DNA of 64,000 bases, from positions 6,443 through 70,442 of IMG/VR virus record IMGVR_UViG_3300037264_003124, one strand, 5' to 3'. The position numbers and the translations under genes are program-made. Below, one piece after another: positions 19,677 through 56,980 of the stretch; position 1 is the first letter of the stretch, and every line of letters begins with the position of its first letter. The DNA is from a virus. The notes beneath the pieces were generated by a model. That model had not been told where the DNA came from, made no database searches, and saw only the letters and a list, made by a program, of their open reading frames with translations.

Positions 19677-21029
19677 ATGGACGCTTTTACAACCGTGATT
19701 GCTGTAGACCGCGAGCACCTCGCCGAAATCCGCGAGACGTGGCCGACGTGGCAGCGATTCCACCCGGAGATTGCGGCCAATCCGCTGCTCATGCTGACGG
19801 ACGGCACGGCGGAATTCACCAGCGGATTCCCAGACGGCATGCGCGAATGGCGGCTGCACCAAATAACCACAGCCGACAGCCCCACGCAAAAAGACCGCAT
19901 GCTGTCTAGCCTGTTGCTCGACGCACCGCGTTTAGTGACAACCCAGCAGTGGATCAAAATTGACACTGACACGATTGCCGTCGGACCAGGCAAGCCACTG
20001 ACGAAGTACCTCGGCGTCGAGTCACTCGCCGCCCCAGCGTGGCCGTACACGATTCCGGTCGACGCACTCGACCAACTCGACGCCTGGTGGAAGCGGGCCG
20101 GCGAAGAGGCCGCCACGCCGCCGCTGGCCGAACAAGGCCGCAAGGAGCCGGAGCGGGACCGCGTGCACTTATCGAGAGTCATCGGCTGGCTAACCATCAT
20201 CGACACGGCCTTCTCCCGCCGCGTGGCTGAGCTTGTCCGCCGCTGTTCGCCGCCGTTCATCTCGCACGACACGATTCTCTGGTACGCGGCGCAGCGATGG
20301 GGAATTCCGGCCAAGCCGGCAAACTTCAAGCGAGACGGATGGGACCATGTCCTGGGTCTGCGTAGTATCAAGAGGAGAGTCTCCGAAGTTCAATTGGGGT
20401 GGGAAATGCCTGCCTTCCCGCCTCCTGATCCTTTTGTCGACGAGGAAGTATCACGAATGATGGGCCTTGCTCCACCGCACTCCCGCGTTCTAGCCGGTGC
20501 GCTAAAAAACCACTTCGGCGGCACAGGCAAAAGTCTGGTTGGCGTCGAAATAGGCGTCTACCGCGGCGAGACGGCCTCGCACTTGCTGTCGGTGTTCCCC
20601 AACTTGACGCTGTTCATGGTCGATCCGTGGAGGGAGTTTCCGGCGAGCGAGCACGAGACCTTGCAGTACGACAGAATTAGCTGCCAGACGCAGTGCCAGC
20701 ATGACGAGTGCCGCAAGCTAGCCTATAGGACGACGCAGGAGTTTCGTGACCGGCGGGTTGTCTTGGAAATGACGAGCCGCGCGGCAACAGCGGTGTTGCC
20801 CGACGGACTCGACTTTGGATTCGTTGACGGGCGGCATGATCGTCCGTCCGTGGAAGAAGACCTCCGCGACTTATGGCCGAAGATTCGCTCCGGCGGAGTT
20901 TGTTCCGGGCATGATTTCAATCACCGCCGCTTCACGGGCGTCACGGAAGCGGTCAATGACTTCGTCGCAGCGAATCGACTTGAGCTGAAAACGTACCGTC
21001 GAAAAATTTGGAGCGTGGTGAAACCGTGA
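19677..21029 (+). CDS. Fusion of a GT-A-like domain and a class I SAM methyltransferase (Methyltransf_24-like)
   Basis: N-terminal WIKIDTD (DxD); C-terminal GVEIGVYRG, MVDPW, FVDGRH, GGVCSGHDF. Confidence 0.8.
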   Translation: MDAFTTVIAVDREHLAEIRETWPTWQRFHPEIAANPLLMLTDGTAEFTSGFPDGMREWRLHQITTADSPTQKDRMLSSLLLDAPRLVTTQQWIKIDTDTIAVGPGKPLTKYLGVESLAAPAWPYTIPVDALDQLDAWWKRAGEEAATPPLAEQGRKEPERDRVHLSRVIGWLTIIDTAFSRRVAELVRRCSPPFISHDTILWYAAQRWGIPAKPANFKRDGWDHVLGLRSIKRRVSEVQLGWEMPAFPPPDPFVDEEVSRMMGLAPPHSRVLAGALKNHFGGTGKSLVGVEIGVYRGETASHLLSVFPNLTLFMVDPWREFPASEHETLQYDRISCQTQCQHDECRKLAYRTTQEFRDRRVVLEMTSRAATAVLPDGLDFGFVDGRHDRPSVEEDLRDLWPKIRSGGVCSGHDFNHRRFTGVTEAVNDFVAANRLELKTYRRKIWSVVKP

Positions 21030-21877
21030 ACTGGCCCAGACATTCCGGCTGGCAATCGACTCGAACGGTCGGCCCCACGCCGCCTTTCGTTGAACGCATC
21101 TGCCACCCGCCCGATTGCTGCATCGTGCAAGGTCTCTGGCACCCCGGCGACGACTTCGAGTCGCACGAAGAAAAGGCACGCTGGGAAAACAAGATTGTCA
21201 GCAACGTGCTGAATTCCAGCGGTACGGCCGTGCACAACGTCGGGCGATTAACGGGCCTGTCTGGTGCGGCACTGGCCAAAGAACTAAAGTCGATCGTCTA
21301 CGCATTCGATGAAGCCAGCTACGATGTTCTGGTAAAGGCGGACTTGTCACCAGTACAGTTTTTCGACTACGACCGCTCGCTCTGTGCGTCGAAGAGTCAG
21401 CAATTTCGCCGCAAGCTGCTGGCCATCCGCGACGCCCTGCATAATTATCAGCACGTTCTGTGGATGGACATTGACTGCATCAAACTTGGGCCTTTTCCCG
21501 CCGACTTTTGGGACAGGCTCAAAGATGGTGCACCGATTCAGGCGAAGATTAGACAATACCACCGTCGCAAGGCTCATTGGCGGCATGGACAGGCGCGGAT
21601 CCTGCAAGGCGGGGCATTCATTTACTGCCGGTCGCTGCCGATAATCGAGCGGGCGCTCGACGTGATGGCCACGCCAGTCTATGATCTGGCCCCGCGTTTT
21701 TATCCATCGGGAACTGGTCGTGCATTCGACGACGAAATGGCGATTGCGTGGGTGATTGACGAGATGAACGGCGGCTGGATGGGGCAGGATGCGTACCGCA
21801 AGGGATGGGACGTGCCGCACTACACGATTAGGGGCGAGGTTTGGAAGGTTGAACGGCCGGTGTTTACGGCGAGGTGA
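21026..21877 (+). CDS. Putative glycosyltransferase (paralogue of 34231-35010)
   Basis: FRRKL..I...L....HVLWMDIDC DxD motif; DDEMAI. Confidence 0.65.
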   Translation: MNWPRHSGWQSTRTVGPTPPFVERICHPPDCCIVQGLWHPGDDFESHEEKARWENKIVSNVLNSSGTAVHNVGRLTGLSGAALAKELKSIVYAFDEASYDVLVKADLSPVQFFDYDRSLCASKSQQFRRKLLAIRDALHNYQHVLWMDIDCIKLGPFPADFWDRLKDGAPIQAKIRQYHRRKAHWRHGQARILQGGAFIYCRSLPIIERALDVMATPVYDLAPRFYPSGTGRAFDDEMAIAWVIDEMNGGWMGQDAYRKGWDVPHYTIRGEVWKVERPVFTAR

Positions 21878-22758
21878 AGTTGTCGCGTTGTGTCATCTAC
21901 TTCTTGTGCGGTCGCTGGCGGCAGTATCTCGGACCGCTCGTCGTCTCGCTGCATTCGCTGCGGAAGTGGTGGGATGGGCCGGTATGCGTGATGGCAGGCA
22001 ACGACATTTTGATGGTTTCGGAACGCACGGAACCTAAAGGCCCAATTGGCAGTCCGGAATTCTTTAGAAGGGACTGCGAGGTCGCTTATTTGAGCGTCCC
22101 ACTTGCTCCCGTCCGCCGCCACGCCGCCTACGTGACAAAAAGCTCGCTATGGCGACAGAGTCCTTTTGATCAAACCGTATTGCTGGATGCCGATACCATC
22201 GTCACGGGCCCCATCGACGAGCTATTCGACTCCCCGCTGACCTTGACCAAGTTCGCCCACTGGATTACCACCGGCCGCATCGTCGGCGGCCGAATTGCCC
22301 AATGGGAGCGGCGCGGCATCCACGTAGAAACGGCACAGCGGCTTCGCAGCGAGCCGCAACCGGCAATCAATACCGGCGTCGTCGGCTGGAACCGAACGCG
22401 AGCGACGCCAATTCTGGAAGCGTGGGAGGCCCTGTCGCGAGAAGGGTGGGCGTGCTCGTTCACGGATGAGCTGGCCATGCAGATTTTGGCGGCTGAGCGG
22501 CCGGACGAATTACGGCTGGTTGACGATCGATTCAACTGCTCCGCCTCGTTCGGCCAGGCCGTTGATGACGTGCGTGTCCTGCACTTTCACGGCCGCCGGA
22601 TGATTCCCGGCCGCGGCAAGCCGGATTGTGCCGCTCTGTATCGGCCGCACCTCTTGGCGGCCCTAGAGGCCAACGCGGGCTGGATTGCCGATTGGCTCGA
22701 AGAAATCGACCCGCCACTGTGGGAGCTGGCCAAGTGCTCGCCAGGCGTCGCGGTCTAG
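21874..22758 (+). CDS. GT8-like glycosyltransferase
   Basis: LVVSLHSLR, K......PFDQTVLLDADT, INTGVV, DE.AMQ, RFN, VLHFHG. Confidence 0.75.
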   Translation: MKLSRCVIYFLCGRWRQYLGPLVVSLHSLRKWWDGPVCVMAGNDILMVSERTEPKGPIGSPEFFRRDCEVAYLSVPLAPVRRHAAYVTKSSLWRQSPFDQTVLLDADTIVTGPIDELFDSPLTLTKFAHWITTGRIVGGRIAQWERRGIHVETAQRLRSEPQPAINTGVVGWNRTRATPILEAWEALSREGWACSFTDELAMQILAAERPDELRLVDDRFNCSASFGQAVDDVRVLHFHGRRMIPGRGKPDCAALYRPHLLAALEANAGWIADWLEEIDPPLWELAKCSPGVAV

Positions 22759-22842: not shown

Positions 22843-23925
22843 ATGAGCAGATTCATTCTAGCGTTTCTGGTTGGCCTGTCGACGGCGGCCGGGCAGGACT
22901 TGAGCATTGAATCCAGGGACTATCTCACATTCGGCGAACGTCCAGGAATGTTTAACGGGTTCCGGCCGGGAGTAGGCATTGCGATTGCGGAGGGATGGAA
23001 AGTATGGCGAGGCGGTCAATCAATCGAGCTTCCATTCCCTGAAGTCGAAGAGGAAAAGTGGTTTTGGAATCGAGCATGGGCTCAATTCTCCGTCCCTGAA
23101 TTGCAAGGGAGCATTAGTTCTGCTGTCTTGCGACTTCCATTGAGCGGTCGCACAAATGGACGTCCGCAGATGTCCGAACAAGTTGACCTCGTTTTGCACG
23201 ATGTGACCCTGTGGCCACCGGAAGGATACTCAAGGTCGCCGTTTCCTACAGACGAAGAACTCGCAAACAAAATCGCGACATGGCATGACTTTGGAAACGG
23301 AATGTTTTACGGAATGCGAGATTTTTCACCAGACATACTGACGCCGTATTGGAGTCAGCATGTACCATCTTCTGGAACTGGGTCTGATGGAACGTTCCTG
23401 CCGTATTACACTTCGCCTCCGAACTACGGGATTGTGAGTGGCGACTCACTGCCGTTTGAAAGCTGGATGTTTCACGGCCTTGGAGAGAATTACGACGATT
23501 TTTATCACGACTTCCGCCTTAGTCCCGCTGCCGTTCGGGACATCGCGAATTCTTCAATGAGCTCCTGGATGATTGGTGCAATGTTGTCGCCGCCTACTTC
23601 CCTGACCGAAGGCGAGCAGCCCTACAGCCTGAATGAATACGCCGCAGTTTACGCCAATGAATACCCGCTGATCCTCGACCTCACCTACGGCCCGCCCCCT
23701 CCCCTCGGCGACTTCTCCGGCAACGGCCGCGTGGACCAAAGCGACCTTGACTTCGTGCTGCTGAACTGGGGAATCTTCGACCAAGAGGAGCTAGACGCCG
23801 TGCTGATGACCTGGGGCGATGGCGGGCTAGCGGCGGCCAGTGTGCCGGAGCCGGCGGGCGTTTGGATTGCGGCGGTGGTTGTTATAATTGCGGCGTACTT
23901 CAGGAGACGGGAATGCCCACACTAG
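22843..23925 (+). CDS. Secreted PEP-CTERM protein with a dockerin/EF-hand-like motif
   Basis: Signal peptide; GDFSGNGRVDQSDLDFVLLNWG; C-terminal VPEP, TM helix, RRR. Confidence 0.85.
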   Translation: MSRFILAFLVGLSTAAGQDLSIESRDYLTFGERPGMFNGFRPGVGIAIAEGWKVWRGGQSIELPFPEVEEEKWFWNRAWAQFSVPELQGSISSAVLRLPLSGRTNGRPQMSEQVDLVLHDVTLWPPEGYSRSPFPTDEELANKIATWHDFGNGMFYGMRDFSPDILTPYWSQHVPSSGTGSDGTFLPYYTSPPNYGIVSGDSLPFESWMFHGLGENYDDFYHDFRLSPAAVRDIANSSMSSWMIGAMLSPPTSLTEGEQPYSLNEYAAVYANEYPLILDLTYGPPPPLGDFSGNGRVDQSDLDFVLLNWGIFDQEELDAVLMTWGDGGLAAASVPEPAGVWIAAVVVIIAAYFRRRECPH

Positions 23926-25433: not shown

Positions 25434-25603
25434 GCGACAAAGACCCATTCAATACCGGGGCGGACGTGACGTTTCCACGCGACGCGGGCGATTGGCGCAA
25501 GGACGTCAAGGACGACGACCCAGATGACGAGGAGATTGAAACGCCGGCGGACGTAAAGGCGATTCTTGGATTCGACCCGCGCGAATTGAACGATGCAAAT
25601 TGA
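25430..25603 (+). CDS. Small acidic protein coupled to TopoIB (absent from the ORF track)
   Basis: 57 aa, MSDKDPF...DWRKDVKDDDPDDEEIETPADVKAILGFDPRELNDAN; ATGA overlap with the topoisomerase stop. Confidence 0.65.
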   Translation: MSDKDPFNTGADVTFPRDAGDWRKDVKDDDPDDEEIETPADVKAILGFDPRELNDAN

Positions 25604-26306
25604 GATCGTGACTCACAGTTTCGGCCCCTTCTACTTTCGCCTGCTGGATCAACAACTTCGCTCGCTCGACACAATCCCCAACGCCGCCGCGACTGTCTTC
25701 GTCTGGAAGGAGGACATGCTTTTGATTCCTGCGATCATGGGCGGAGTCATTCCACCTGGCGTCTGGTGTCCGCTCGGCAAGCCACAGCTACTCAACCGCA
25801 CAATCGGCCGCAACATGGCCGCGAAGGCAACCACGGCCGATTGGATCTGGTTCACCGACGCCGATTACCTCTTCGGACCAGGCAGCCTCGAATCGCTGGC
25901 CAACCTTGACCCGCACACGGCGTGCATGTACTACCCGCGTAGGATCATGCGGCCGGCGGCTACCGACTATTTCGAAGACTTGGCAAACGACGTGAACCCG
26001 ATGGAACGCTGCACCGTGGCCCATAGGACGCCCTACGCTATCGGCGGCGCTCAGATAGTCCCAGGCCACATTGCCCGTCAGTGGGGCTACCTGGACGGCG
26101 TGCGGCGTTACCAGCAGCCTGCGACGGGCGACAAGTTCTTAGACACTCGCGGCGATGCGGCATATCGGGTTTGGCTAGCCAAGAAAACGGGACTGCCGAC
26201 TATATCGGCAGACATTCCTAACGTCTTCAGACTACGGCACCGGATACCGGAGACGAGCGCGCGGAATCACCTTCTGCCGATGGTGCCAGCCCCGGCGATA
26301 TCCTGA
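25593..26306 (+). CDS. GT2-like glycosyltransferase
   Basis: GRNMAAKATTADWIWFTDADY. Confidence 0.75.
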   Translation: MQIEIVTHSFGPFYFRLLDQQLRSLDTIPNAAATVFVWKEDMLLIPAIMGGVIPPGVWCPLGKPQLLNRTIGRNMAAKATTADWIWFTDADYLFGPGSLESLANLDPHTACMYYPRRIMRPAATDYFEDLANDVNPMERCTVAHRTPYAIGGAQIVPGHIARQWGYLDGVRRYQQPATGDKFLDTRGDAAYRVWLAKKTGLPTISADIPNVFRLRHRIPETSARNHLLPMVPAPAIS

Positions 26307-26631: not shown

Positions 26632-27119
26632 GATCCGCTCGACTCCTCGTCGTATTGATCCACTGACCATTCCCCCATAATGTCCATGGATGAATGGTAA
26701 TAATTTCTTCCCCTCGCTAAACCAGGCACAAGTTGCAAGGCCCTAGCGTGCAATTTCTGAAGGTCATTCATGCCACGTCCCGCAAGCTCCCAGGCAGCAA
26801 TAATCGCCGACGTTGGGCCGCGATGCCCGCCTAGTTGGCAATGCGTGAGAATCGGGAGCTTTTTGGACTGGAACGCTATATGGACTACCTGGCATAAGGC
26901 GGACATGTAGTGAGCGTCCACGTCTTCCCGGTCCTTTTTGGACAGTCGGAAATACAGAACGTGGTGCGGAAGCTCCTTCAACTTTGACCAGTACACGTCT
27001 CGTCCATGCCGTGGGCTGAAGTGGTGAGCGATGTTGATAATGGTCCCGACTTTTCCGATGCACTCGAATGGAGCTTCCCAGTTGCCGAACCAAACTTGTT
27101 CGGTCAGCTTGTGGATCAT
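26628..27119 (-). CDS. Dual-specificity/PTP-like phosphatase
   Basis: CX5R loop ILTHCQLGGHRGPT; QVWFGN and IINIA N-terminal motifs. Confidence 0.8.
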   Translation of the reverse strand: MIHKLTEQVWFGNWEAPFECIGKVGTIINIAHHFSPRHGRDVYWSKLKELPHHVLYFRLSKKDREDVDAHYMSALCQVVHIAFQSKKLPILTHCQLGGHRGPTSAIIAAWELAGRGMNDLQKLHARALQLVPGLARGRNYYHSSMDIMGEWSVDQYDEESSGS

Positions 27120-27811
27120 ACAGGCACTCCTAGTTTCCGCGCCGTCTCCGTCAGAAACGCCCGGCTGCGGTTGGGTATCGGGCTGTGCAGCACGAACGGC
27201 TGGCCGCCCGTCGTGAGGTTGGTCAGGCGGCCGTTTTCGATGCGGGCTAGATTGCGGGCCTTTTTCCATTGCCCGGCACAGCACCAAAAGAGGTCGCAGT
27301 TGTAGTCAATGTCCACCATCTGGACTGCACAAGCCGACGATAGGAACCACTGTTCATTTCTGTGAAAATCGTTCTTCATTGCACGGCAGTTCATGTCCTC
27401 GAACAACAGCCGCACGTCATGTACTTTTCCAACAAATGAACCACCGTTCGGGTAGCGGTAAATTGAATCTCCGCCATGACGTTTCGCTAGTTCGTCAAAA
27501 TGCGGTTGCAAACACGGGTCGCGTTTGCGGAACCATTTCTCGCCGGCGTATGTGATACTTTTTGTCCTAATTGGGACAGGTCGTGGGTCACGTAGGTAGA
27601 TGCAGTCATGGGCATCCGTGCAAACTAGAATCTCGTCGTGGGCAAGTGGCTGAAAACAGAGCCACTCATAGAGCCACTCAATCTTACTCACCCCGCCGCG
27701 ATACTCCTTGCCGATCCCAATCGGCTCGACCTCAATCCCAAAGTTCCGGGCCGACGCGAACAACAGCTCGCTCCGCTCGTCAATCTTGTTGCACCACGTC
27801 ATAAAACGCAT
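27116..27811 (-). CDS. PLOD/procollagen-glycosyltransferase-like GT-A protein
   Basis: L..SA..FGI....IG.G..Y.G...KI, ILVCTDAHD, YAGEK, YRYPNGGSFVG, IDY.C.LF. Confidence 0.75.
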   Translation of the reverse strand: MRFMTWCNKIDERSELLFASARNFGIEVEPIGIGKEYRGGVSKIEWLYEWLCFQPLAHDEILVCTDAHDCIYLRDPRPVPIRTKSITYAGEKWFRKRDPCLQPHFDELAKRHGGDSIYRYPNGGSFVGKVHDVRLLFEDMNCRAMKNDFHRNEQWFLSSACAVQMVDIDYNCDLFWCCAGQWKKARNLARIENGRLTNLTTGGQPFVLHSPIPNRSRAFLTETARKLGVPV

Positions 27812-27815
27812 ATGG

Positions 27816-28169
27816 CTACAGCAGGCGTTGCCCCTCGATTGGTAGCGGGACGGATAGTGCGTTCTCGAATTCCCTCTCCATCTCCACCTTGTCGCGGCCA
27901 CGCCGAATGAGGCCCGATAGCTCGCTTGGGCATTTCAGCAGGTCCTCTGCCGGCAAGTCCTGGAATCGCATGTAGGTGTTGAAGCCGCCTTCGCCAAGAT
28001 GGTCGAGCCGCGCTACGAAGATGCAGTATCGGCCCGCGGCCAGGGCCTTGTAGACGGCATCTTCCGGGCTCTTGATGCCGCTCTCCTCATTTGGCGACGA
28101 GGTCGTCAACTTCGTACCATCCAAAGGTATCGAGTCGTGTGGGGAAGGAAGAGATGCTGTTGACGTCAT
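27816..28169 (-). CDS. Hypothetical protein (start uncertain)
   Basis: Fills the gap within the operon. Confidence 0.4.
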   Translation of the reverse strand: MTSTASLPSPHDSIPLDGTKLTTSSPNEESGIKSPEDAVYKALAAGRYCIFVARLDHLGEGGFNTYMRFQDLPAEDLLKCPSELSGLIRRGRDKVEMEREFENALSVPLPIEGQRLL

Positions 28170-28992
28170 ACAAACAGTCCTCGAAGGAACGAAACGGAAA
28201 CGCGGTCAAACCGCTGTACTCGTAGCAATTAAACACCTTAAGGCCCGCCTTGTCAAAATACGGGACCAAGGCCGTGTAGCACTTGTTCATGTCGCGGAAG
28301 TGCCCGTTGCACTCGATGACGCCCCCCTGATGCTTGGCCTGCATGAACCCGTAGGGCCGATCGACCGACATGTGGAAGTCGCAGCCGACCAGGTAAATTG
28401 TGCGGATGCCAAGCCGGGGGAGAATGCCGAGTATGGAAAACATCGTATTGATGACCCGCGGCCAGCCGTTGGGCTTAATGCCCGGAATTGGTTTGTCATG
28501 CTTGTCGAGCGCCAGGGCGTGTTTCTTGTCGTTCCCCTGATTCACGCTGTCGGCAGTCAGCCACGTCGACGGGTCGAAGACGTGGTTCCTCTGGTAGCCG
28601 ATTACTCCCGGAAGTTCTTTTGGGTACTTACCGGTGGGTGTGAACTCTCCATTGTCGTTCCGATGATAGACGCACCAACCTTTCTTGCGATTGCTCCACA
28701 TCGTCGAGGGGACGATTTTCAACATGCCAGGGTCGTTCCAAATGGCCTCGTGGAACTTGACCGGCTTGTCTGAGTGATGCCAAATGTGTGGCCGGATAGG
28801 GACGCCGCCGACGTCTGGCAGCACGCCCGCGCAGTTGTTGAAGCTGGCGATGAGGACGCCACGCTGGGCCAGCTTTTCGAGCGGCAGTTTCTTGGCGGAC
28901 GGGCCACCGGCGACGAGAAAGCAGCGGCCATCTCGGTACAGCGTGTCGAGGTACAGCTCGCGGTCTTGAGAGTCTCTAAACGCGGTTCCCAT
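28087..28992 (-). CDS. Maf/DUF115/sialyltransferase-like CMP-sugar transferase candidate
   Basis: CFLVAGGPS...FNN, LGIRTIYLVGCDF, VFNC...S.L..FP. Confidence 0.65.
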   Translation of the reverse strand: MGTAFRDSQDRELYLDTLYRDGRCFLVAGGPSAKKLPLEKLAQRGVLIASFNNCAGVLPDVGGVPIRPHIWHHSDKPVKFHEAIWNDPGMLKIVPSTMWSNRKKGWCVYHRNDNGEFTPTGKYPKELPGVIGYQRNHVFDPSTWLTADSVNQGNDKKHALALDKHDKPIPGIKPNGWPRVINTMFSILGILPRLGIRTIYLVGCDFHMSVDRPYGFMQAKHQGGVIECNGHFRDMNKCYTALVPYFDKAGLKVFNCYEYSGLTAFPFRSFEDCLYDVNSISSFPTRLDTFGWYEVDDLVAK

Positions 28993-46792: not shown

Positions 46793-47014
46793 TCACGAAT
46801 CCACCACGCGGCTTTCAGTCCGCGTCTCGGTTGCAGGTTTGAACCGCGTGTAGTGGTCCCCGACCTGGCCGGATTCGAGCGGAACCGCAACAAAGAGGGT
46901 TCCGCTTAGCCCCTTGGACTCGGCTGAGTACAAGAGGTTTTTGAGGGTCTTCAGGCAAGCGTGTATCTGCTTGCCGTTGGACTCTCTTCCTGGATTCTTA
47001 GCATGTTGCGGCAT
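46793..47014 (-). CDS. Hypothetical protein
   Basis: Coupled small ORF. Confidence 0.4.
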   Translation of the reverse strand: MPQHAKNPGRESNGKQIHACLKTLKNLLYSAESKGLSGTLFVAVPLESGQVGDHYTRFKPATETRTESRVVDS

Positions 47015-47726: not shown

Positions 47727-48571
47727 CCTTCGTCTCCAAAGAACCTCCCACTCGCCGCCAAGCTGCACCCCGTCGTCGATTCAAGCTGTTCCGTACCAGC
47801 CAAATCCCGAACGGACGTCTCAAAATCCACAGTCGTAGGGTAGTCCGAAAACTGGCACACCTGCCTATCAACTTCACCGCCCGCTCGCGGCACGTAGTCA
47901 ATCGGACAGTCGAACATCTCCGCCACTTCGCGGATACTGCGGCCGTGGCAAGATCCAATCTCGGTAATGCCATCCCGGTCAGCCGCTGCAACAATCGCCC
48001 GCACGGCGTCCGTGTAGTGGATAAAGTCCCGCACTTGGCTTCCATCGCCGGTGACAGTGATGCGGCCCTTGGTGCGTTTCTGGTCCATGAACGATGGGAT
48101 GACGTTGCCGCTGGATGGCTTGTGGCGGGGCGAGCCGTAGACGCAATGCAACCGGATAATCGAGGTTGATATTCCGAAATAGCTAGTGTAGTGTTCGCAG
48201 TACCGCTCCCCGGCGTATTTCTCGATGGCATAGGGGAGCGTTCTTGTGTAATGGACGATGGCCGAAGATACGAAGACCATCTTCGCCTTTCGCTCCTTGC
48301 AGAACTCCAGACATTCGACTGTCAGATTTGCGCCATTGTTCAAAGATTCTGCCGGATGCTCAGTAGCCTTTCGCACGCTTGCTTGCGCCGCTAAGTGAAA
48401 GACTACGTCGGATTCAATCTCCATGTCCACCGTCAGATTGGCGACATCCAAGCAGCGCACGCCGTGTTTGTGCAGAATGTCGACCGAGCATACATCATGC
48501 CCTTGCTCCACCAGCAGGTCGCAGACGTGGCTGCCAATGTGTCCGGCTCCGCCGGTGACGAGACACTTCAT
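47723..48571 (-). CDS. NAD-dependent epimerase/dehydratase (extended SDR)
   Basis: VTGGAGHIGS, VFHLAA, YAIEK (YxxxK), VYG, GDGSQVRDFIH. Confidence 0.92.
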   Translation of the reverse strand: MKCLVTGGAGHIGSHVCDLLVEQGHDVCSVDILHKHGVRCLDVANLTVDMEIESDVVFHLAAQASVRKATEHPAESLNNGANLTVECLEFCKERKAKMVFVSSAIVHYTRTLPYAIEKYAGERYCEHYTSYFGISTSIIRLHCVYGSPRHKPSSGNVIPSFMDQKRTKGRITVTGDGSQVRDFIHYTDAVRAIVAAADRDGITEIGSCHGRSIREVAEMFDCPIDYVPRAGGEVDRQVCQFSDYPTTVDFETSVRDLAGTEQLESTTGCSLAASGRFFGDEG

Positions 48572-48693
48572 AGGTCCAGCCAATCAGCCAATTCTGCGAG
48601 TACCAATGGTATTACACCGAATAGTACGAAGAAAAATCCGCACACCAACCCTAGCATCAAACACACTTGCCAGAATTCAATTAGAAAGCTCAT
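48568..48693 (-). CDS. Small membrane protein
   Basis: 41 aa, single hydrophobic helix, ATGA-coupled. Confidence 0.4.
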   Translation of the reverse strand: MSFLIEFWQVCLMLGLVCGFFFVLFGVIPLVLAELADWLDL

Positions 48694-49859
48694 GCGAAAA
48701 ACGGATGGACCCACTCGCCCACCCACTCCTTCTCCTTTTCCTGAATCGCTTCCATCACATTCCACGCCATCAGCACGAATACATCCGCCTCAATCTCTTC
48801 CCGCTTCCGTACAGGCAACTTGCTACCCGGTGCGTACTTGCCCTGCTTGGAAGGCATGTCGTCAATCAGGCACTCCATGAACTCGCCCGCCCCCGTGTAG
48901 TTTAGCATCGTGTTGCCCTTGGCCGGAGCACCGTAGCCCACGATCCGCTTCCCTTCGCCCTTCAAACGATCAAGTCGTCTTCGGAGTCGATTACGCTGGT
49001 CCTCAACTCGGCGAGTGACCTGCTTGTATTGCAGAGGGTGAGTGCGTCTCCGCTCAACGTCAATGTTCTTGTAGTAGTCGTGCTTGTCCGTTCGCTCTCG
49101 CCCCGCAAAGGCCCGCAGCGACGTGCCCTGAACGTCGTGCAACTGGACCTCGCTGATAAACAGTCCGTGCCGCTCGAACAGCGTCGACAACGCCGTGGTT
49201 CCAAACAAGGAAAGATGCTCGTGATAGACAGAATCATACCAGCCTCGCTCCCATAAGTCCTCGGCCCACGGTAGTTCGATGACGGCAATTCCATCGTCCG
49301 TCAGCAACAGCGACATGCCGGCCACGGCGTCATTCAAGTCCTCAATGTGAGCAAAGACGTTGTTGGCCAGAATCGCGTCCGCCCGGCCGTCTCGGGTTTC
49401 AATCTCCCTCGCCACCTGAAGTGACCACAACGCCCTTTGCGTCGGCACGCTCGCTGGAATGTTCTCTGCCGGGTCTATTCCAAGTACCGTGTGATTGCGG
49501 CAGGAGAAGTATTCGAGTAACAGGCCGTCATTTGACCCAATCTCGACAATCGAGACCATGCGACCCGTTGGCAATCGCCGCATCACGTCATCAGCGTACT
49601 TCCGCCAATGCTCGCCAAGCGTGGCAGCTCGTGACGAGTAGATGTAGTCGCTGAAGATTTCCTGGCGGTCCACGACAATCGATAGCTGCAAGTGAATGCA
49701 TGCCGCGCAGAGCATAAGCTCCAACGGATACACAGCCTCGTCTTGTTCGGGAGACGACAGGAACGAATTGGCGAGCGGCTGTTGGCCCAAGTCGAGGACC
49801 TTGGTCAATTCGGTCGAGCCGCAGATGCGACAGGCGGTGGAAGGGGTGAAGGGGATCAT
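48690..49859 (-). CDS. NDP-sugar C-methyltransferase
   Basis: CRICGS, LDLGQQPLANSF, EIGSNDG, YHEHLS, GYGAPAKGNT. Confidence 0.92.
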   Translation of the reverse strand: MIPFTPSTACRICGSTELTKVLDLGQQPLANSFLSSPEQDEAVYPLELMLCAACIHLQLSIVVDRQEIFSDYIYSSRAATLGEHWRKYADDVMRRLPTGRMVSIVEIGSNDGLLLEYFSCRNHTVLGIDPAENIPASVPTQRALWSLQVAREIETRDGRADAILANNVFAHIEDLNDAVAGMSLLLTDDGIAVIELPWAEDLWERGWYDSVYHEHLSLFGTTALSTLFERHGLFISEVQLHDVQGTSLRAFAGRERTDKHDYYKNIDVERRRTHPLQYKQVTRRVEDQRNRLRRRLDRLKGEGKRIVGYGAPAKGNTMLNYTGAGEFMECLIDDMPSKQGKYAPGSKLPVRKREEIEADVFVLMAWNVMEAIQEKEKEWVGEWVHPFFA

Positions 49860-51667
49860 GCGGTATCCCTAGCTGCGGCTTCTAATACTTTTTTGGCCTT
49901 GATATCACTCCGTGGATGTTCGTCCTCATTGAACGCTGCATACCTCTTGCCTGCAAACGCATCCCGCAGCCGCTTCGCAATCCCATTCTCCATCGCCCGC
50001 GGCGCATCCGACCCCAGCACAACACTCCTCTCGCTACGCTCACTCGGCGGACCGTCCGCGTCGTACTCAGCGTTCTCTGGCTGCGCCTCAAGGCCGTGCA
50101 CCATTGCGTTCTTTTCAGGACCACCTGAGTCACCGCCACCGAATCCACCGCCCATCGTTCCCGGCGGCGGCTGAATCGACTTCTGTAGCGCCGCCATGTC
50201 GAGCACCTCCGCGCCAGATTCTGGCACCGGAGTACCCAACAAATCCCGCACGTTTTGCGCATCGATCTTGAGGCCCATGTCGTAGGCCATCTTGATCGCA
50301 TTCAGCCGCGTCTCGGCGTCCGGCGTCTCAGTGTCAATTCGGAAACGGAACCTCGTGTTGGCGTACTGCGGATAATTGAACTGAATCATCGGCAGCAAAA
50401 GGTCCGTCGTAATCGTCTCTTCCAATAGCTGCGCATCGTACCGGACGATTTGCATGAACGTGCCAAGCTGCACCTCGGCCAGGTTGCTGCCGAGCCCCGT
50501 GGCGGACGCCTCGCTGGTAAGCGTTTGGCCCAAGATGTACCGCTTGATCTGGTGGCCGAAATACTCATTGATGACGGCCTTGAGAGACTCTGCGCCGCCC
50601 ATGCCAGGCTCGATATGCTCGACCCGATAGAGGGCCGATTGTTCATCCTGCACCATCGGGAAGAATACAATGTTTCGGCTGCCGCCCGATTCACTCTGCC
50701 GCAAAGCGGCCTTTTCGATTTCCTCTTTTGCCGTGGGGTTGTGCATCGGGTAGTACCAAACATTGAATCCGAACGCACTCCGCTCCAGGTACTCCATCAA
50801 GAGCGACAATGCCTCTTGCTTCTGAATCCACGTCCAATACAGCACACTCCGCAGGCCCTTGCCGTGAATGCGGCCCGCGTTAGTCGGCTCTTCATACTCG
50901 CCGTCCTCGATCTGGTTCTTGTGGATAGCCAGTAGCGGCCGCTCCCACGTGTCGAGAAAATACGCCAGCCCGTAGTCGGTCGGCTGGATCTTGCCCTTCA
51001 TTTGGCCGCGGATGATCGGCAATCCGTCGCCATTCTTGAATGTGGCGTCCTCTTCGTCCTCGCGCTGCCGCTCCCACCGCCTCGCGGAATTCTGCCAACC
51101 CGGATAGGCCATGCCGATGCGGATGCCGACCTGGTCCGGCCTGTACGTCCCCAGTCCGTCGTCATATCGAAAGACGATCTTGTCGCCGTTGACGGGAAGC
51201 CATTGGTCCATGACGATCCGCATCTTGGGACCAACCCGCTTCCACCGCCACTTGTGCTGGATGCCGTACTTGCCGTACCACGTCGCGTGCAACAGGTTCT
51301 CGCGGTATTGCAGGAAGCGGGGGATGTCTTCCAGCATCCGCGTCAACTCCGCAGCCACACCGACTTGTCCCTGGTCCTTTTTGTTCTCCGGCTCGACGTG
51401 CCACTCGAAGAGGCAGCAGGCCCGCTGCCGCATCTCGACGCACTCCATGATGGCCGTGTCGTTACGCATGATGCGGGCATTCTCAAACGATTGCTTGAGC
51501 GCCTCATCGGACGGCCGGTAGACGCGGGCAATCGACGAAACCGTGCCCTGAAACGTGATGGCATGCGGCAGGATGGACTCGCCCATGTTGATAGGCATGC
51601 GCGAGAGGCGTCCTGCCGGATCAAGCGTCGTGTCGTAAAGTGAGAATCCAGGTATCGGCATCTTCAA
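49856..51667 (-). CDS. Portal protein (Mu gp29/DUF935-like)
   Basis: LLHA.WYG, G.GL...LYW.W..K, ILGQTLTS, LAEV; located after the terminase. Confidence 0.85.
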   Translation of the reverse strand: MKMPIPGFSLYDTTLDPAGRLSRMPINMGESILPHAITFQGTVSSIARVYRPSDEALKQSFENARIMRNDTAIMECVEMRQRACCLFEWHVEPENKKDQGQVGVAAELTRMLEDIPRFLQYRENLLHATWYGKYGIQHKWRWKRVGPKMRIVMDQWLPVNGDKIVFRYDDGLGTYRPDQVGIRIGMAYPGWQNSARRWERQREDEEDATFKNGDGLPIIRGQMKGKIQPTDYGLAYFLDTWERPLLAIHKNQIEDGEYEEPTNAGRIHGKGLRSVLYWTWIQKQEALSLLMEYLERSAFGFNVWYYPMHNPTAKEEIEKAALRQSESGGSRNIVFFPMVQDEQSALYRVEHIEPGMGGAESLKAVINEYFGHQIKRYILGQTLTSEASATGLGSNLAEVQLGTFMQIVRYDAQLLEETITTDLLLPMIQFNYPQYANTRFRFRIDTETPDAETRLNAIKMAYDMGLKIDAQNVRDLLGTPVPESGAEVLDMAALQKSIQPPPGTMGGGFGGGDSGGPEKNAMVHGLEAQPENAEYDADGPPSERSERSVVLGSDAPRAMENGIAKRLRDAFAGKRYAAFNEDEHPRSDIKAKKVLEAAARDTA

Positions 51668-52848
51668 CGTCCTCTATTCGGCGTCCCTCTGTTGGGTGTG
51701 CCACGATTCGGCGCACCATCCATCGGAACAATCAGCGGTGCTATCTGCTCCGGCAACGCACTACGCAGCGTCCGCACCTTGCCCGTGCCGACCTTCTGCA
51801 CCCGCACCGTTCGCGGCACAAATAGCTCTTGGCCAGCACCTGCATACGTTGCCTTCCGTGGCACATAGTCATTGCGGATCGCCACCAGCCGGTAGTCGTG
51901 GCGATGGCCACTCCAAGTCCCGCGAATCCGTACATTGTCCCACAGCCAGATGCCTTTCGACGGCGCGTCGTACATCGCCAAAAACTTCTCAGGTTGTACA
52001 TTCGAGTAGGCGTAAAGGCTGCCGGCTCCGCTGCCAAATTGCGGACCCGACCGATAGCGAACGTAGAGCGTGGACGCATCCACGTCGTAGCCGAAAGACC
52101 AGACGTTGGAGGATTCGGCCCGCACCATTTCCTTGGTGATGATTGGGTGATTGGCCGGGAAGCGGCGGCCTGTGCCATCGACCTCGATATCGACGACTTG
52201 TCGCTGCCGACCCGTCGAAGTGGACTTGGGAACACCACCCGGATAAAAAGTCTGCTCCGCGCTTGTGACCGGGTCGTCCTCATCAACTGATACTGGCCGT
52301 CTGGCAGGTGGTGCAATCACCTGATAACCTTCCGCCTCTAGCCTCGCAATCATTGCCTCCATGCTGTCCGCCACGCCGCCAGTTGTCAGCTTTCGAGCAT
52401 CCGGCGAGAGCTTCTCGGGAGCCCACGCTTGCAGTAGTCGCACGGCCGCGTCAATCTCGCCGTCGATACCGCTGCCGCGTGTCTTGGCCCCAGGAGCGAG
52501 CAATGCCTTCAGCAACCGGCCCATCGGCCCCAGCGCCCCCAGCAGCTCCGTAATCAGCCGGGCCGACTCACCTCCGAACGCCTGATACTTGACGACCTCG
52601 CGGACCATGTCTTTGAACGGCATTCCGCTGGACTGGCGGATGAATCCCGCACTGAACCCGTGCCGCGAGTAGCGGTTGAGCATGTCTCCGAAGCGTGCGG
52701 CCGACGATACGACCGTCCGCGGCGTATTGATGGCATCCTTGACGTCGCGGACCAGCTTGTACGCCTCAGTCTGGCGAAACGCCTCCCGCGCCACACGCCT
52801 TTGCTCGCGGTCGAATTCTCGGAACAGCGGGTTGCGGGACCAGGCCAT
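51664..52848 (-). CDS. KTSC-domain protein
   Basis: SSNV.S.GYD....TLYV.Y..G..Y.Y.NV........APSKG; C-terminal PNRG repeats. Confidence 0.75.
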   Translation of the reverse strand: MAWSRNPLFREFDREQRRVAREAFRQTEAYKLVRDVKDAINTPRTVVSSAARFGDMLNRYSRHGFSAGFIRQSSGMPFKDMVREVVKYQAFGGESARLITELLGALGPMGRLLKALLAPGAKTRGSGIDGEIDAAVRLLQAWAPEKLSPDARKLTTGGVADSMEAMIARLEAEGYQVIAPPARRPVSVDEDDPVTSAEQTFYPGGVPKSTSTGRQRQVVDIEVDGTGRRFPANHPIITKEMVRAESSNVWSFGYDVDASTLYVRYRSGPQFGSGAGSLYAYSNVQPEKFLAMYDAPSKGIWLWDNVRIRGTWSGHRHDYRLVAIRNDYVPRKATYAGAGQELFVPRTVRVQKVGTGKVRTLRSALPEQIAPLIVPMDGAPNRGTPNRGTPNRGR

Positions 52849-53109
52849 TTAGCGGCGCACTCCATTCACCATCGCGGCTTGTCGCTGCTGATTGATGCTT
52901 CGCTGCACAAATTCTCGAATCGTCTCCACCACTTGCTCGACCGTCTCCGTCACCTTCCACGGCTCGGCACGATCCACCACGTAGATCGCCGTTCTCGCCG
53001 TGACTCCATCTGATGCCGAATTATCCAACGCCTCCAGGGCGATCATTGTCTCAATCCGGAAGTAGACCCTCTGACCTGTCAGGTAGTTCGTAAACCAGAC
53101 CTGAAACAT
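52849..53109 (-). CDS. Small hypothetical protein (FlbD-like pattern)
   Basis: VYF....I..LE...T.I......V.ETVEQVVE.I. Confidence 0.45.
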   Translation of the reverse strand: MFQVWFTNYLTGQRVYFRIETMIALEALDNSASDGVTARTAIYVVDRAEPWKVTETVEQVVETIREFVQRSINQQRQAAMVNGVRR

Positions 53110-53111
53110 GG

Positions 53112-54791
53112 CTACCGTCCATTCCTGGCCAACTGTACGGTGCCGCGTGCGCCGTTGACGTGGCGGTGCATCTGGACTGCGTTTCGTTCTGCATGGCGGT
53201 GCATCTCTTTCGCGTAGCGGGGCGGCTCCCAACCTTCGATCTTCCGCTCACCCATAATCATATACCTCAGAGCGTCCGGTCCGTGGTCGAATCGCGGAAC
53301 TGGTACCGGCCTGGCTAGTCCAGGATTAAGGGCCATCATGTTGGGCTGACCGCGCTTCCAACGATAGGATCGCATTTCGCTTATCAGATGCTTACAACGG
53401 CTCGATATTTTCAAGAGCGGCTGGTCTGTTTCTCGCTGCGGAGTCAGCAGGTGCTTGATGTAGTAAATTCCCTCCAGAACACTATTCTCGCTCTTGTTGT
53501 ATCCGACGGTGGGAACACCGTAGAGGTTGAACTCGCGGATGTTACCCGGTGCCGCCGAGTCCGCATGGTTGACTCGATACCCAGGCCGCATGGTCAGTTC
53601 AATTTCCTTATGCCCACGCTTTCCATGAATAACCGGCCAGTTCCATTGCTCGCACCGGTCAATCGTCTCATTGATGTGGTCCCGCAAAATCTTCGTTTGG
53701 CTGACGGTCCAGTATTCGTCGTAGACGGTCCACGATCCGTCTGCCGGGTCCCAATACGCCCACAGCGTGCAATGGGCATGCTCGCTGGTCCAGCCCCAGT
53801 CCGTGCCCATGGCGTGAATCAGAGAATTGTCACGTAATGCACGGTCCTCGATAAACTGCTCGTCGACCATGTGGATCGCCTCGGAGAAACCAGCATAGAT
53901 CATGCCCTCGAAAACCGCGAAGTCGCCATAGAGCCGCGTCGCGTGCAACTCATCGGGAGTGAAGGCCAGCATCGAATCGATCCAGTCCTGGCCTCCTGGT
54001 AGATTCGGCAGATTCTTCAGCGTGTTGGCCTTATAGACCTTCCAGCTTGGAGGGGCTTTTTCAATCGCCTGCTCCATCTCCGCCGAGAGCCACGGGTCGA
54101 GCGGCGTGAACTCAATCAGCCGTGCCCCGCGATATTTGTAGTCGCGCAGGCCACGAACCGTCTCCGCACAAAGCACTGACGGCGGCGTCTCGCTAATCCA
54201 GAATCCACCCAGCGACGCCCCTTGCAGGGCAGCACGGCCCTGCTCGAAAGTTTTGAACTCAATCACCCAGTTCTTATCCGGGTGACCGCCGCGATCCGTT
54301 GGCCACGATTTCAAGACAACAGCTTTCGGTTGATTGCGGACCTTGTTGTGCCAGACGATTTCCTGAATCTCGCAACCTGGGATGAATCCCATGCCGTGGA
54401 GCTTCTCGCCCCAGCACACGTTGCAAGTGTTCTCGAACGTGTTCGACATCACCCAGAACGGGGTATTGCGACGCGGCGGCGGTTGTTCCATCAGCATAAA
54501 CCGAGCCGCCTTGTACGCCGCCGCCACAGACGTTCCCGCTCCATTGCCGCCAATAAGGAACGCGACACCATCCTTGCTATTGCAAAATGACTCCTGCTGG
54601 TCGGCTCCTCCCGGTGCGTCCAAGTCATCGGGTCGCGGCCTGAAGCTCAACAAGCCATTGTTGCCCAGCGCGTAATCGAGGTACTCCGCAATCGCCGGAT
54701 TGTGCGGAGCGACCTCCATTGCCATCTTCACGAATTCCAGGCTGGCCCACGAGCCAGCCCCGATTGTCTTAATCGCCGCCCTCCGATTCAT
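53112..54791 (-). CDS. terL: Terminase large subunit
   Basis: QQ.F, GGNGAGTS, FTP, RLYGDF...EG.IY, GTDWG, ADSA, DHGPDALRY. Confidence 0.88.
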   Translation of the reverse strand: MNRRAAIKTIGAGSWASLEFVKMAMEVAPHNPAIAEYLDYALGNNGLLSFRPRPDDLDAPGGADQQESFCNSKDGVAFLIGGNGAGTSVAAAYKAARFMLMEQPPPRRNTPFWVMSNTFENTCNVCWGEKLHGMGFIPGCEIQEIVWHNKVRNQPKAVVLKSWPTDRGGHPDKNWVIEFKTFEQGRAALQGASLGGFWISETPPSVLCAETVRGLRDYKYRGARLIEFTPLDPWLSAEMEQAIEKAPPSWKVYKANTLKNLPNLPGGQDWIDSMLAFTPDELHATRLYGDFAVFEGMIYAGFSEAIHMVDEQFIEDRALRDNSLIHAMGTDWGWTSEHAHCTLWAYWDPADGSWTVYDEYWTVSQTKILRDHINETIDRCEQWNWPVIHGKRGHKEIELTMRPGYRVNHADSAAPGNIREFNLYGVPTVGYNKSENSVLEGIYYIKHLLTPQRETDQPLLKISSRCKHLISEMRSYRWKRGQPNMMALNPGLARPVPVPRFDHGPDALRYMIMGERKIEGWEPPRYAKEMHRHAERNAVQMHRHVNGARGTVQLARNGR

Positions 54792-56090: not shown

Positions 56091-56110
56091 GGGAAAACGG
56101 TTCTCTAGGT

Positions 56111-56980
56111 TTAATAATACCGGAAACTGAACAGGATATAGCGGTCTTCCTCTTGCGTGTCGCCGAACACGAGCCGGAATTCGCAGAAGTCGAAGATGCC
56201 GTCTGGGATCTGATAAGCTCGGTTGGCTTGCACATCGGTGATCGTCGCAATCAACAGCGTTCCGTTAGCCGCTCGCGGGCGGACCCACTCGCCAATGGCC
56301 ATCTCGCCCGTTTCCAGCTTGGCTGCATTGCGGACCTCGTAATTGACGATCTGGGTTGCCGAGCTGCTCGATGAAGAGCTGCTGGACGAAACGCTAGAGG
56401 ACGACGAATTAGAAGATGGCGACGCTGAGGATGACGAGGACGAACTGTTTTCAGATAGCGAGCTTCTCGACGAACTCGACGAGCTGGACGAGCTGGACGA
56501 ATTCGAGGAGCTGGATGAATCGCTCGAAGGGCTGGAGCTGCTAGACGAACTGCTCGACGAGTTTGACGAGCTGCTGGAATTGCTAGAGCTGGATGAATTC
56601 GACGACGCCGACGATGGGGACATCGACGACGTGCTCGATTCGCTGGAAGTGCTCGATTCGGAAAACGACATGGACGACTGTGACGAAGCCGACACGGAAG
56701 ACGCGGAGGATGACGTGGGGCTGCTGGCGGAGCTGCTGGACGAATTGCTGGAAGAGCTGCTATTGCTTGAAGAGGAATTCGAGCTGGCCGACGATGGAGA
56801 AGACGAAGACTCGTTCGACAGACTCGAGGCCGAGCTGCTTGAAGATTCTTCAATCGCCGCGTCCCAATCGGACGGCAGTTGAAAGCTGCCGCCTACTGCG
56901 CCCTGGGTCATAATCACCCCGGTCACGGTCGCACCTGCCGCGAGCTTCTTGGCAAACTTGACTAATGTCCCCGATGCCAT
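56111..56980 (-). CDS. Small beta-rich virion-type protein with an internal poly-Ser insertion
   Basis: About 160-aa Ser tract between LPSDWDAAIEE and ATQIVNYEV. Confidence 0.75.
   Translation of the reverse strand: MASGTLVKFAKKLAAGATVTGVIMTQGAVGGSFQLPSDWDAAIEESSSSSASSLSNESSSSPSSASSNSSSSNSSSSSNSSSSSASSPTSSSASSVSASSQSSMSFSESSTSSESSTSSMSPSSASSNSSSSSNSSSSSNSSSSSSSSSSPSSDSSSSSNSSSSSSSSSSSRSSLSENSSSSSSSASPSSNSSSSSVSSSSSSSSSSATQIVNYEVRNAAKLETGEMAIGEWVRPRAANGTLLIATITDVQANRAYQIPDGIFDFCEFRLVFGDTQEEDRYILFSFRYY

Follow-up and report, generated by a model that had tools for sequence, protein, structure and literature searches.

What does a phage do with a set of sugar enzymes encoded among its structural genes and next to proteins that contain tracts of up to several hundred serines? 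This question is raised by a 64-kb stretch of DNA (the window; bases 6443–70442 of the single 70,442-bp virus record IMGVR_UViG_3300037264_003124) from an uncultured phage. The sequence-only reading of the window had seen eight glycosyltransferase (GT)-like genes, further sugar enzymes and three poly-Ser proteins, and had proposed that the phage glycosylates its own virion; the open reading frames (ORFs) that it named are all present where it had placed them (Table 1; genes are called here by their first coordinate). Virion O-glycosylation is the best reading of the locus, held with moderate confidence, because an enzyme cassette recurs together with Ser-tract ORFs in other phages and such ORFs are enriched within 10 kb of it. 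The enzymes appear to be of the soluble, nucleotide-sugar type, and lie inside and beside the late structural operon.

The three Ser-tract proteins bear out their first description, which had each tract start after an EE(E)S junction: the tracts span 520, 125 and 169 residues, and each is directly preceded by EE. Poly-Ser 1 consists of an N-terminal segment of ~32 aa, the tract and a Cys-rich C-terminal domain of ~315 aa, and poly-Ser 2 of an N-terminal segment of ~35 aa, the tract and a Cys-rich C-terminal domain. Poly-Ser 3, encoded upstream of the packaging genes, has a 42-aa N-terminal part and a 78-aa C-terminal domain, and showed no family match in Pfam or PHROG. Within each of the three tracts the two codon families for Ser are intermingled, with all six codons in use, and Tandem Repeats Finder detected only three arrays of ~50 bp each over positions 30100–34300 (~4.2 kb). 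Since the codons are mixed and tandem arrays are few, the tracts are selected at the protein level rather than as a DNA microsatellite. Poly-Ser 1 and poly-Ser 2 are paralogs, with 58% identity over 38 aa in the N-terminal segment and 33% over 178 aa in the Cys-rich C-terminal domain, both in the Ser frame. A microsatellite or wrong-frame origin of the tracts is ruled out by the codon mixing and the conserved flanking domains.

Among 1366 candidates scored with the C-terminal domain of poly-Ser 2, the only match was a truncated public gene call of the same contig. This 271-aa call for 30142–31614 takes a Met inside the gene as its start and lacks the N-terminal segment as well as the Ser tract. 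Ser-tract genes may thus be shortened systematically in automatic gene calling.

A conserved enzyme cassette travels with Ser-tract genes in other phages. An 87.6-kb IMG/VR contig, G001, was reached via a distant member of the 34231 family, and a 36.5-kb contig, G002, via an alignment of 28087 and its G001 homolog. Two peptide patterns from an alignment of three 21874 homologs yielded 11 IMG/VR loci in 11 contigs, a non-exhaustive sample with two pairs of near-duplicates, in which the 21874 relatives are 24–33% identical. By tblastn, the cassette consists of a 28087-like gene, the 19677 N domain, a 21874-like gene, a Methyltransf_24 gene and a 25593-like gene, in mostly conserved order. All five genes are found in G001, L020, L021, L022 and L024. 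The Methyltransf_24 gene has no detectable match in G002 and L019; L026 has three of the five genes, and the 16.9-kb fragment L016 has the 21874-like gene only. The 25593-like gene was detected in G001, G002 and L019–L025, and not in L016 or L026, while 28087 has matches in all related contigs but L016. A KdsB-like gene was also detected in G001, G002 and L022. When all ORFs of the window were compared with those of G001 and G002 by BLASTP, the common genes were sugar enzymes (plus a topoisomerase IB in G001), and no structural gene was shared. Two of the cassette proteins have no tblastn relative in 50,697 GenBank phage records.

The sequence-only reading had suggested looking for co-occurrence of poly-Ser genes and this GT set across IMG/VR phages, and the two do co-occur. 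A Ser tract was counted where at least 24 of 40 residues are Ser, in stop-to-stop frames of all six phases, a criterion of our own choice. Ser-tract ORFs, between one and seven each, are present in 12/12 cassette contigs, the window's genome included. A Ser-tract ORF lies within 10 kb of the 21874-like gene in 7 of 11 cassette loci, as against 5 of 79 control loci (one-sided Fisher p = 2.8e-5), the controls having been chosen via a phage short-chain dehydrogenase/reductase (SDR) epimerase (80 returned minus G001) and covering 10 kb on either side. With near-duplicates collapsed, the figures are 6/9 and 4/78 (p = 3.1e-5). The five positive controls are low-GC phage loci (L063, L085, L086, L095 and L125). 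The KdsB-like/Maf-like genes have a Ser-tract gene immediately upstream in G002, L020 and L021, and also in the window, there with one small unassigned ORF between.

The carriers of the tracts differ from contig to contig, and in the relatives they belong to particle modules. In G001 the tract belongs to a 1722-aa protein of tailspike type, with a BNR_4 domain and a right-handed β-helix, and in G002 to a Cys-rich protein encoded directly 3' of the tape measure gene. The comparison of the globular parts of the Ser-tract proteins was confined to G001, G002 and the window's genome, and BLASTP found no homology between these three; the tract thus behaves as a portable module. A domain of ~175 aa recurs in G001–G011; behind it come an acidic junction and, at the C-terminus, a tract of 43–501 aa. 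The domain's G001 and G002 members are related by BLASTP at E = 0.05 only. The AlphaFold2 (AF2) model of this domain (predicted local distance difference test, pLDDT, 74) gave generic β jelly-roll matches (best VIA Z 7.5) to plant virus coats, phage capsid accessory chains and Ena pili. Labelling it a tube or decoration protein was considered and dropped, as the fold matches are only generic. At 24 of 35 distinct junctions, an acidic residue occupies one of the two positions ahead of the tract, which extends the EE(E)S observation.

Gene order ties the enzymes to the structural genes. Nearly all genes are on the minus strand; the exception is the plus-strand block 19677–26306, which holds 19677, 21008, 21874, the gene for a secreted PEP-CTERM-like protein, a topoisomerase IB gene and 25593. 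The late operon runs from the portal gene through the C-methyltransferase, SDR and 46998 genes, the head genes with the adaptor, and the tail-module genes to 34231, poly-Ser 1 and poly-Ser 2. A 150-aa ORF without assignment (29745–30197), the KdsB-like gene, 28087 and the GT_PLOD gene follow. The C-methyltransferase gene is directly downstream of the portal gene, and its trio with SDR and 46998 adjoins portal and head genes. Gaps of only 2–4 nt separate the tail-module gene 35014–36333, 34231, poly-Ser 1 and poly-Ser 2, and the 34231 stop lies 2 nt ahead of the poly-Ser 1 start. The claim that 34231 lies directly upstream of two poly-Ser genes thus holds by gene order, and this GT gene sits with structural genes, flanked by a tail-module gene on one side and the poly-Ser genes on the other. 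The interleaving of sugar and structural genes likewise stands, with the portal, terminase, scaffold-type protein and adaptor identified.

For the 34231 product, sequence searches of Pfam, PHROG and the PDB gave no match. Its AF2 model (pLDDT 91.9) has a GT-A fold nearest that of glycogenin (Foldseek E = 2e-6; VIA Z 13.6, root-mean-square deviation 3.0 over 177 residues), and its VIA fold relatives include protein-glycosylating enzymes, namely glycogenin, the Skp1 α-galactosyltransferase and GT domains of bacterial toxins. A profile of 34231 and 21008 found 320 proteins among 1.84 billion representatives, and none of the 71 members scanned with Pfam has a family. In the DxD motif, D137 is invariant and D139 is present in at least 90% of 71 sequences. 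With this fold and motif, the predicted model agrees with the retaining, GT8-like class of CAZy, and 34231 is predicted from its fold to be a retaining-type GT-A enzyme. In the Pfam scan the PF01501 gathering score was reached neither by 34231 and 21008, which have no family, nor by 21874. The 34231 family is an accessory part of the system; its members were found in G001, G002, G005 and the genome of the window only.

The cytidylyltransferase gene 28976 is directly upstream of 28087 and overlaps its start. It had been read as a KdsB-like CMP (cytidine monophosphate)-sugar synthetase. The superfamily match passed, but every NCBIfam KdsB cut-off was missed (best 109.2 bits against 193; TIGR00466 66.2 against 155.2; model cut-offs 155–281), and the protein is therefore assigned to the superfamily, without a particular sugar. 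For 28087, four lines are individually weak but concordant: a PHROG sialyltransferase match at 1e-4; Pfam MptE-like at E = 0.18; in the Atlas, a feature similarity of 0.94 to a PF01973 cluster and structural TM-scores of 0.59–0.63 to MptE-like and WaaZ_KDO_III clusters; and, for its profile against the PDB, GT42 sialyltransferases at E = 0.005–0.1 and Maf (5mu5) at E = 2.1. An LG..IYL.G.DF core is common to 28087 and the GT42 sialyltransferases. Its PF01973 score is 12 bits against a gathering cut-off of 34.6, and one of 17 sequence relatives carries PF01973; 28087 thus looks like a Maf/CstII-like protein without being a PF01973 member by score. The KdsB-like/28087-like gene pair recurs in G001 and G002. 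Pfam scans of the window and of the rest of the genome showed no nonulosonate synthase family of the NeuB/PseI type, so the donor of 28087 is more likely host Kdo (3-deoxy-D-manno-octulosonic acid) or a related sugar.

Among the remaining sugar enzymes, the SDR epimerase and the nucleoside diphosphate (NDP)-sugar C-methyltransferase passed their Pfam cut-offs, as did the S-adenosylmethionine (SAM)-dependent methyltransferase domain (Methyltransf_24) that had been seen fused in 19677. In G001 the two halves of 19677 are separate, adjoining genes. The call of eight GT-like genes survived for half of them: 34231 and 21008, by fold and paralogy, the GT_PLOD enzyme 27116 and, barely, 25593. Assignments for 21874, 46998, the 19677 N domain and 28087 are weak. 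The 19677 N domain has no Pfam family, and its sole named Atlas lead is GT6 at 0.94; 46998 is placed downstream of the SDR and C-methyltransferase genes, with weak evidence for its assignment. A DxD motif after a hydrophobic strand is conserved in 9/9 members of the 19677 N-domain family, 8/8 of the 25593 family and 11/11 of the 21874 family. Kinship of the 19677 N domain or of 21874 to the 34231 family was rejected, as hhalign was not significant (probabilities 1.1% and 2.5%). A relative of 21008, P0005, is 58% identical to it, and no relative of 27116 was found in the other cassette contigs by tblastn. None of the sugar enzymes has a clear membrane segment.

Table 1. Features of the sugar-enzyme and Ser-tract locus and its structural frame (window positions)
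Feature	Position	Strand	Evidence or remark
C5-cytosine methylase	7321-8094		12 kb away from nearest GT
Two-domain enzyme	19677..21029	(+)	N domain ~250 aa, DxD, GT-A-like; Methyltransf_24 at residues 290-414, E 2.7e-14
GT-A glycosyltransferase, 34231 paralog	21008..21877	(+)	35% identity, E 5e-40 to 34231; start codon uncertain
GT8-like DxD transferase, core cassette gene	21874..22758	(+)	Pfam GT8 17.2 bits, below cut-off 24.3
Secreted-type protein with signal-like N-terminus and PEP-CTERM-like C-terminal anchor	22843..23925	(+)	Pfam PEP-CTERM E 0.064, residues 333-356
GT2-like DxD transferase, core cassette gene	25593..26306	(+)	Pfam Glycos_transf_2 24.8 bits, cut-off 23.3, over 35 aa
PLOD-type GT-A glycosyltransferase	27116..27901	(-)	Pfam GT_PLOD E 4e-10, 39.8 bits, cut-off 27
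CstII/Maf/WaaZ-like transferase, core cassette gene	28087..28992	(-)	Presumed CMP-sugar user; likely start Met at 28992
KdsB/NeuA-superfamily cytidylyltransferase (CMP-sugar synthetase)	28976..29701	(-)	Pfam CTP_transf_3 E 1.9e-16
Poly-Ser fibre-like protein 2	30142..31614	(-)	490 aa; tract 37-161, 125 aa, 79% Ser; junction HEEE/SSSS
Poly-Ser fibre-like protein 1	31619..34228	(-)	869 aa; tract 33-552, 520 aa, 384 Ser, 74% Ser; junction FEEE/SSSS
Retaining-type GT-A glycosyltransferase, glycogenin/GT8-like fold (predicted)	34231..35010	(-)	AF2 model and fold match
Structural and packaging frame enclosing enzymes	42387..54791	(-)	
Mu gp36-type adaptor	42387-42893	(-)	Pfam Phage_Mu_Gp36 E 4.5e-11; PHROG adaptor
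Scaffold/cement-type protein	44081-44491	(-)	PHROG scaffold
Possible GT2-like transferase	46998..47768	(-)	PHROG glycosyltransferase 6.8e-4; Pfam GT2 0.012; NCBIfam MftF 0.0037
NAD-dependent sugar epimerase/dehydratase (extended SDR)	47723..48583	(-)	Pfam Epimerase E 2.2e-37; PHROG 540 E 4.9e-50
NDP-sugar C-methyltransferase	48690..49859	(-)	Methyltransf_14 E 1.3e-30, Methyltransf_13 E 1.4e-20, Methyltransf_23 E 2e-16
Mu-type portal	49856-51667	(-)	Pfam Portal_Mu E 1e-42
Terminase large subunit	53112-54791	(-)	PHROG
Poly-Ser protein 3	56111..56980	(-)	289 aa; tract 43-211, 169 aa, 73% Ser; junction AIEE/SSSS

The secreted-type protein encoded at 22843–23925 contains a dockerin-like GDFSGNGRVDQSDLD motif, and its hydropathy peaks at 1.83 at residue 333. 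It may serve as an alternative acceptor or be a host-surface moron, and its sequence suggests a host with an exosortase system. Together with Planctomycetota among the Atlas neighbours of 28087, this PEP-CTERM-like gene provides leads, drawn from sequence, to a probable host.

Several other genes stand near the sugar enzymes. The topoisomerase IB gene (23862–25433, plus strand) lies inside the enzyme block of the window, and G001 carries a copy with its cassette (21867–24215, 42% identical), fused to or adjoining an ART-PolyVal ADP-ribosyltransferase gene. G001 also has five 34231-family paralogs, a hexapeptide acyltransferase, a radical SAM gene and, amid a GT cluster, an IS1-type transposase fragment (L004 6059–7120). 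In G002, the contig that also has the KdsB-like/28087-like pair, a 202-aa ORF (L013 4233–4841) gave a Pfam match to GT29, a sialyltransferase family of eukaryote type (E = 3.2e-14 over 49 residues).

Elsewhere in the genome, Pfam and PHROGs identified DnaB, AAA_24, a PD-(D/E)XK nuclease, RusA and the C5 methylase in the replication block, and a 394-aa KTSC-domain protein is encoded between the terminase and portal genes (51664–52848, minus strand). No close relatives of the structural genes were found in GenBank phages or IMG/VR, and blastn of 42923–46727 against GenBank phages gave no match. Single-protein scans for phage relatives yielded nothing useful with the portal, P0005, P0015 (genomes), 28087 and alignment A4 (genomes), and two weak 36-residue matches only with 34231. 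A search of the phage for tRNA genes found none, and promoter and terminator scans of 26000–37000 remained at chance level. The ends of the record (window 63333–64000 and genome bases 1–668, L015 1–668) share 668 bp with 83 mismatches (~88% identity), many of those listed being spaced at every third base. This stretch is the C-terminal part of a 729-aa minus-strand ORF, with a truncated copy at the other end. Either the genome is circular and two diverged alleles were assembled around it, or the copies are true paralogs; an exact terminal repeat is ruled out by the 83 mismatches.

How could such a set of enzymes work? We propose that a cytoplasmic, phage-encoded kit would O-glycosylate the Ser tracts of the phage's own fibre-like particle proteins before or during assembly. 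The KdsB-type enzyme would activate a host-supplied, Kdo-like ulosonic acid, which 28087 would transfer directly to Ser, as Maf does on flagellin, or add as a cap. The DxD-containing GT-A enzymes (34231, 21008, 21874, 25593, the 19677 N domain and 27116) may start or extend short chains from host UDP (uridine diphosphate) and GDP (guanosine diphosphate) sugars, Methyltransf_24 would O-methylate a sugar, and SDR, the C-methyltransferase and 46998 would add a C-methylated deoxy sugar. The product would be a mucin-like stalk, stiff and resistant to proteases, that joins a short particle anchor at the N-terminus to a disulfide-rich distal domain, probably host-binding; at ~0.25 nm per residue, the 520-aa tract could extend to ~130 nm. 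Which enzyme initiates, which sugars are added and where on the particle the three Ser-tract proteins of the window sit are points that we infer. For the methylated, acidic-sugar glycan put forward earlier, the basis consists of Methyltransf_24, the C-methyltransferase, the KdsB-type cytidylyltransferase and the CstII/Maf/WaaZ-like transferase, the glycan itself being predicted. The glycosylation interpretation as a whole is thus partly supported, by the co-occurrence of tracts and cassette and by the methyl and acidic elements; four of its eight GT calls are weak.

Several observations weigh against this interpretation. The controls are mostly of low GC (median 0.38; 12 above 0.5), were selected by an epimerase and cover only 10 kb on each side, and the 11 cassette loci come from two peptide patterns in a non-exhaustive sample, scored by a self-set tract criterion. 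A Methyltransf_24 homolog is present in three of the five positive controls (L063, L085 and L086), so the control set is not free of related systems; tract-plus-enzyme systems may occur in quite different phages. The 34231 family is absent from seven of the 11 related contigs. The window's three Ser-tract proteins have no homolog of known location, and a role in the particle is suggested for them by gene position only. Secreted enzymes of Cellvibrionaceae have poly-Ser linkers that are not known to be glycosylated. In addition, KdsB-type and WaaZ-type enzymes are classic enzymes of the lipopolysaccharide core, and six enzyme genes stand on the opposite strand beside a secreted PEP-CTERM-like protein, which fits host-surface or secreted targets. 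The last two points lead to a different explanation, in which the host envelope is the target of the enzymes, which would modify lipopolysaccharide core, exopolysaccharide or a secreted PEP-CTERM glycoprotein, for instance for superinfection exclusion, and the tracts are unglycosylated, flexible linkers common in the phages of one host clade. Both the KdsB-type enzyme and the WaaZ_KDO_III-like look-alike of 28087 are of lipopolysaccharide type, and the plus-strand block is transcribed against the structural operon. A host-surface target is possible, since that block encodes the PEP-CTERM-like protein with its signal-like segment. One of the clusters near 28087 in the Atlas is 61% bacterial, Planctomycetota being the most frequent group, and because of this cluster co-inheritance within a host clade could mimic a functional link. 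However, the enzymes have no clear membrane segments, and Pfam scans found no Gtr-type, Wzy-type or flippase genes; several of them lie inside the late operon with gaps of 2–4 nt; a Ser-tract gene is kept directly upstream of the KdsB-like/Maf-like genes in four genomes; and the globular parts of the Ser-tract proteins vary while the enzymes stay conserved. Envelope or secreted-protein modification is the main rival, and it keeps about a quarter of the probability because of the lipopolysaccharide-type appearance of the KdsB/WaaZ-like pair and the PEP-CTERM-like gene.

The tracts might also be modified in another way, by phosphorylation, glycerol-phosphate or lipid-linked block transfer, or a part of the enzymes might act on the tracts and the rest build a free or capsule-like glycan. 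No initiating enzyme has been identified, four GT assignments are weak, and among the structural neighbours of 28087 in the Atlas one carries a fused CDP (cytidine diphosphate)-glycerol glycerophosphotransferase, all of which would suit such a scheme. It is nevertheless improbable, given that the conserved cassette members except Methyltransf_24 are all of DxD nucleotide-sugar or CMP-sugar transferase types, and that Pfam scans of the window revealed no kinase or phosphotransferase family. Finally, the GTs could hypermodify phage DNA against restriction, as with the glucosylated hydroxymethyl-pyrimidines found elsewhere. Phage GTs often act on DNA, according to an excerpt of PMC12619734 that cites Pyle et al. 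2024, and this phage encodes a C5-cytosine methylase. That gene, however, is 12 kb from the nearest GT, and DNA modification would leave the CMP-sugar genes, the sugar C-methyltransferase and the link to Ser tracts unexplained. Since neither a dCMP/dUMP hydroxymethylase nor a TET/JBP dioxygenase turned up when 118 ORF translations (40+21+22+35) were scanned with Pfam, we consider DNA glycosylation very improbable.

Virion O-glycosylation could, if correct, extend beyond this phage. We suggest tentatively, as a possibility to which we give slightly less than even weight, that a portable system is common to many uncultured phages, whose hosts are probably Planctomycetota and neighbouring phyla: a conserved cassette with a Maf/CstII-like CMP-ulosonic-acid transferase at its head, and an acidic-junction/poly-Ser tag that can be grafted onto any particle protein, to give a mucin-like glycan brush. 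Tag and cassette would then amount to a general, programmable way of sugar-coating phage particles, be it on a fibre, a tailspike or a small jelly-roll protein. Our literature search, which covered articles without their supplements, retrieved no description of poly-Ser phage particle proteins with a GT set. If the tracts are dedicated acceptors, virion glycosylation would be widespread in environmental phages and predictable from sequence by tract and cassette. It would also be transferable, in that a short tag and a few soluble enzymes could produce mucin-like brushes in the bacterial cytoplasm. The model offers testable functions for several protein families absent from Pfam, including the 34231 family.

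To our knowledge, a few mycobacteriophages are the only phages whose particles have been demonstrated to be glycosylated. In the excerpt of PMC12619734 on which we draw, virion O-glycosylation is described for Che8, Corndog and Myrna (Freeman et al. 2023, as cited there), at the C-termini of capsid and tail-tube subunits, with glycans that are said to shield the particle. As far as this excerpt describes that system, the present one resembles it in having soluble phage GTs, encoded among or near structural genes, that are thought to decorate particle proteins; in the related contigs, Ser tracts are C-terminal extensions on small particle-module proteins, like the C-terminal glycan sites outlined there. 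The window's own tracts, in contrast to the sites in that account, span 125–520 residues with 73–79% Ser and are internal to fibre-like proteins, and the three proteins match no capsid or tube family in Pfam or PHROG. Moreover, the enzyme set is larger, with a CMP-sugar arm and a C-methyl sugar arm, and the hosts are probably not actinobacteria, judging from the PEP-CTERM-type gene and the Planctomycetota leads.

Some features recall bacterial systems. Streptococcal and staphylococcal serine-rich repeat adhesins are glycosylated by GtfA/GtfB and GT8-type extension enzymes, and have an accessory Sec system. As in these adhesins, hundreds of Ser residues would form a dense O-glycan acceptor and an extended stalk with a distal binding domain, and the long Ser-rich region adjoins a GT-A/GT8-like enzyme gene (34231). 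Unlike in the adhesin systems, Pfam found no GT-B GtfA/GtfB pair (no Glycos_transf_1), SecA2/SecY2, signal peptide or LPXTG anchor in the window ORFs scanned, the tracts consist almost purely of Ser where the adhesins have SxSx dipeptide repeats, and glycosylation would have to serve cytoplasmic particle assembly. Motility accessory factor (Maf, PF01973) proteins are flagellin O-glycosyltransferases that work with CMP-nonulosonate synthetases; CstII belongs to GT42, and WaaZ is the Kdo III transferase. The gene pairing of 28087 with a CMP-sugar synthetase, in the window as in G001 and G002, is that of the Maf flagellin loci. The differences are that 28087 falls below the PF01973 cut-off, that a nonulosonate synthase gene is missing, and that the presumed acceptor is a poly-Ser tract rather than flagellin.

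Polyserine linkers with mixed Ser codons are also found in secreted carbohydrate-active enzymes of Saccharophagus, Cellvibrio and Teredinibacter, and we know of no dedicated GT set for them. Here, too, a mixed-codon Ser run joins domains. Unlike those linkers, however, the tracts of this system are carried by phage late-operon proteins without a signal peptide, and co-occur with a conserved enzyme cassette; the window's three proteins have no hydrophobic N-terminus and match no carbohydrate-active enzyme or carbohydrate-binding module family in Pfam. The system would work like the mycobacteriophage and the serine-rich repeat systems, but lacks defining features of both: the short sites at the C-termini of capsid or tube subunits in the former, and GtfA/GtfB with accessory Sec in the latter. 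The comparison partly supports the view that it is a variant of phage virion glycosylation with an unusual acceptor, the poly-Ser tract, and a conserved, mobile enzyme cassette.

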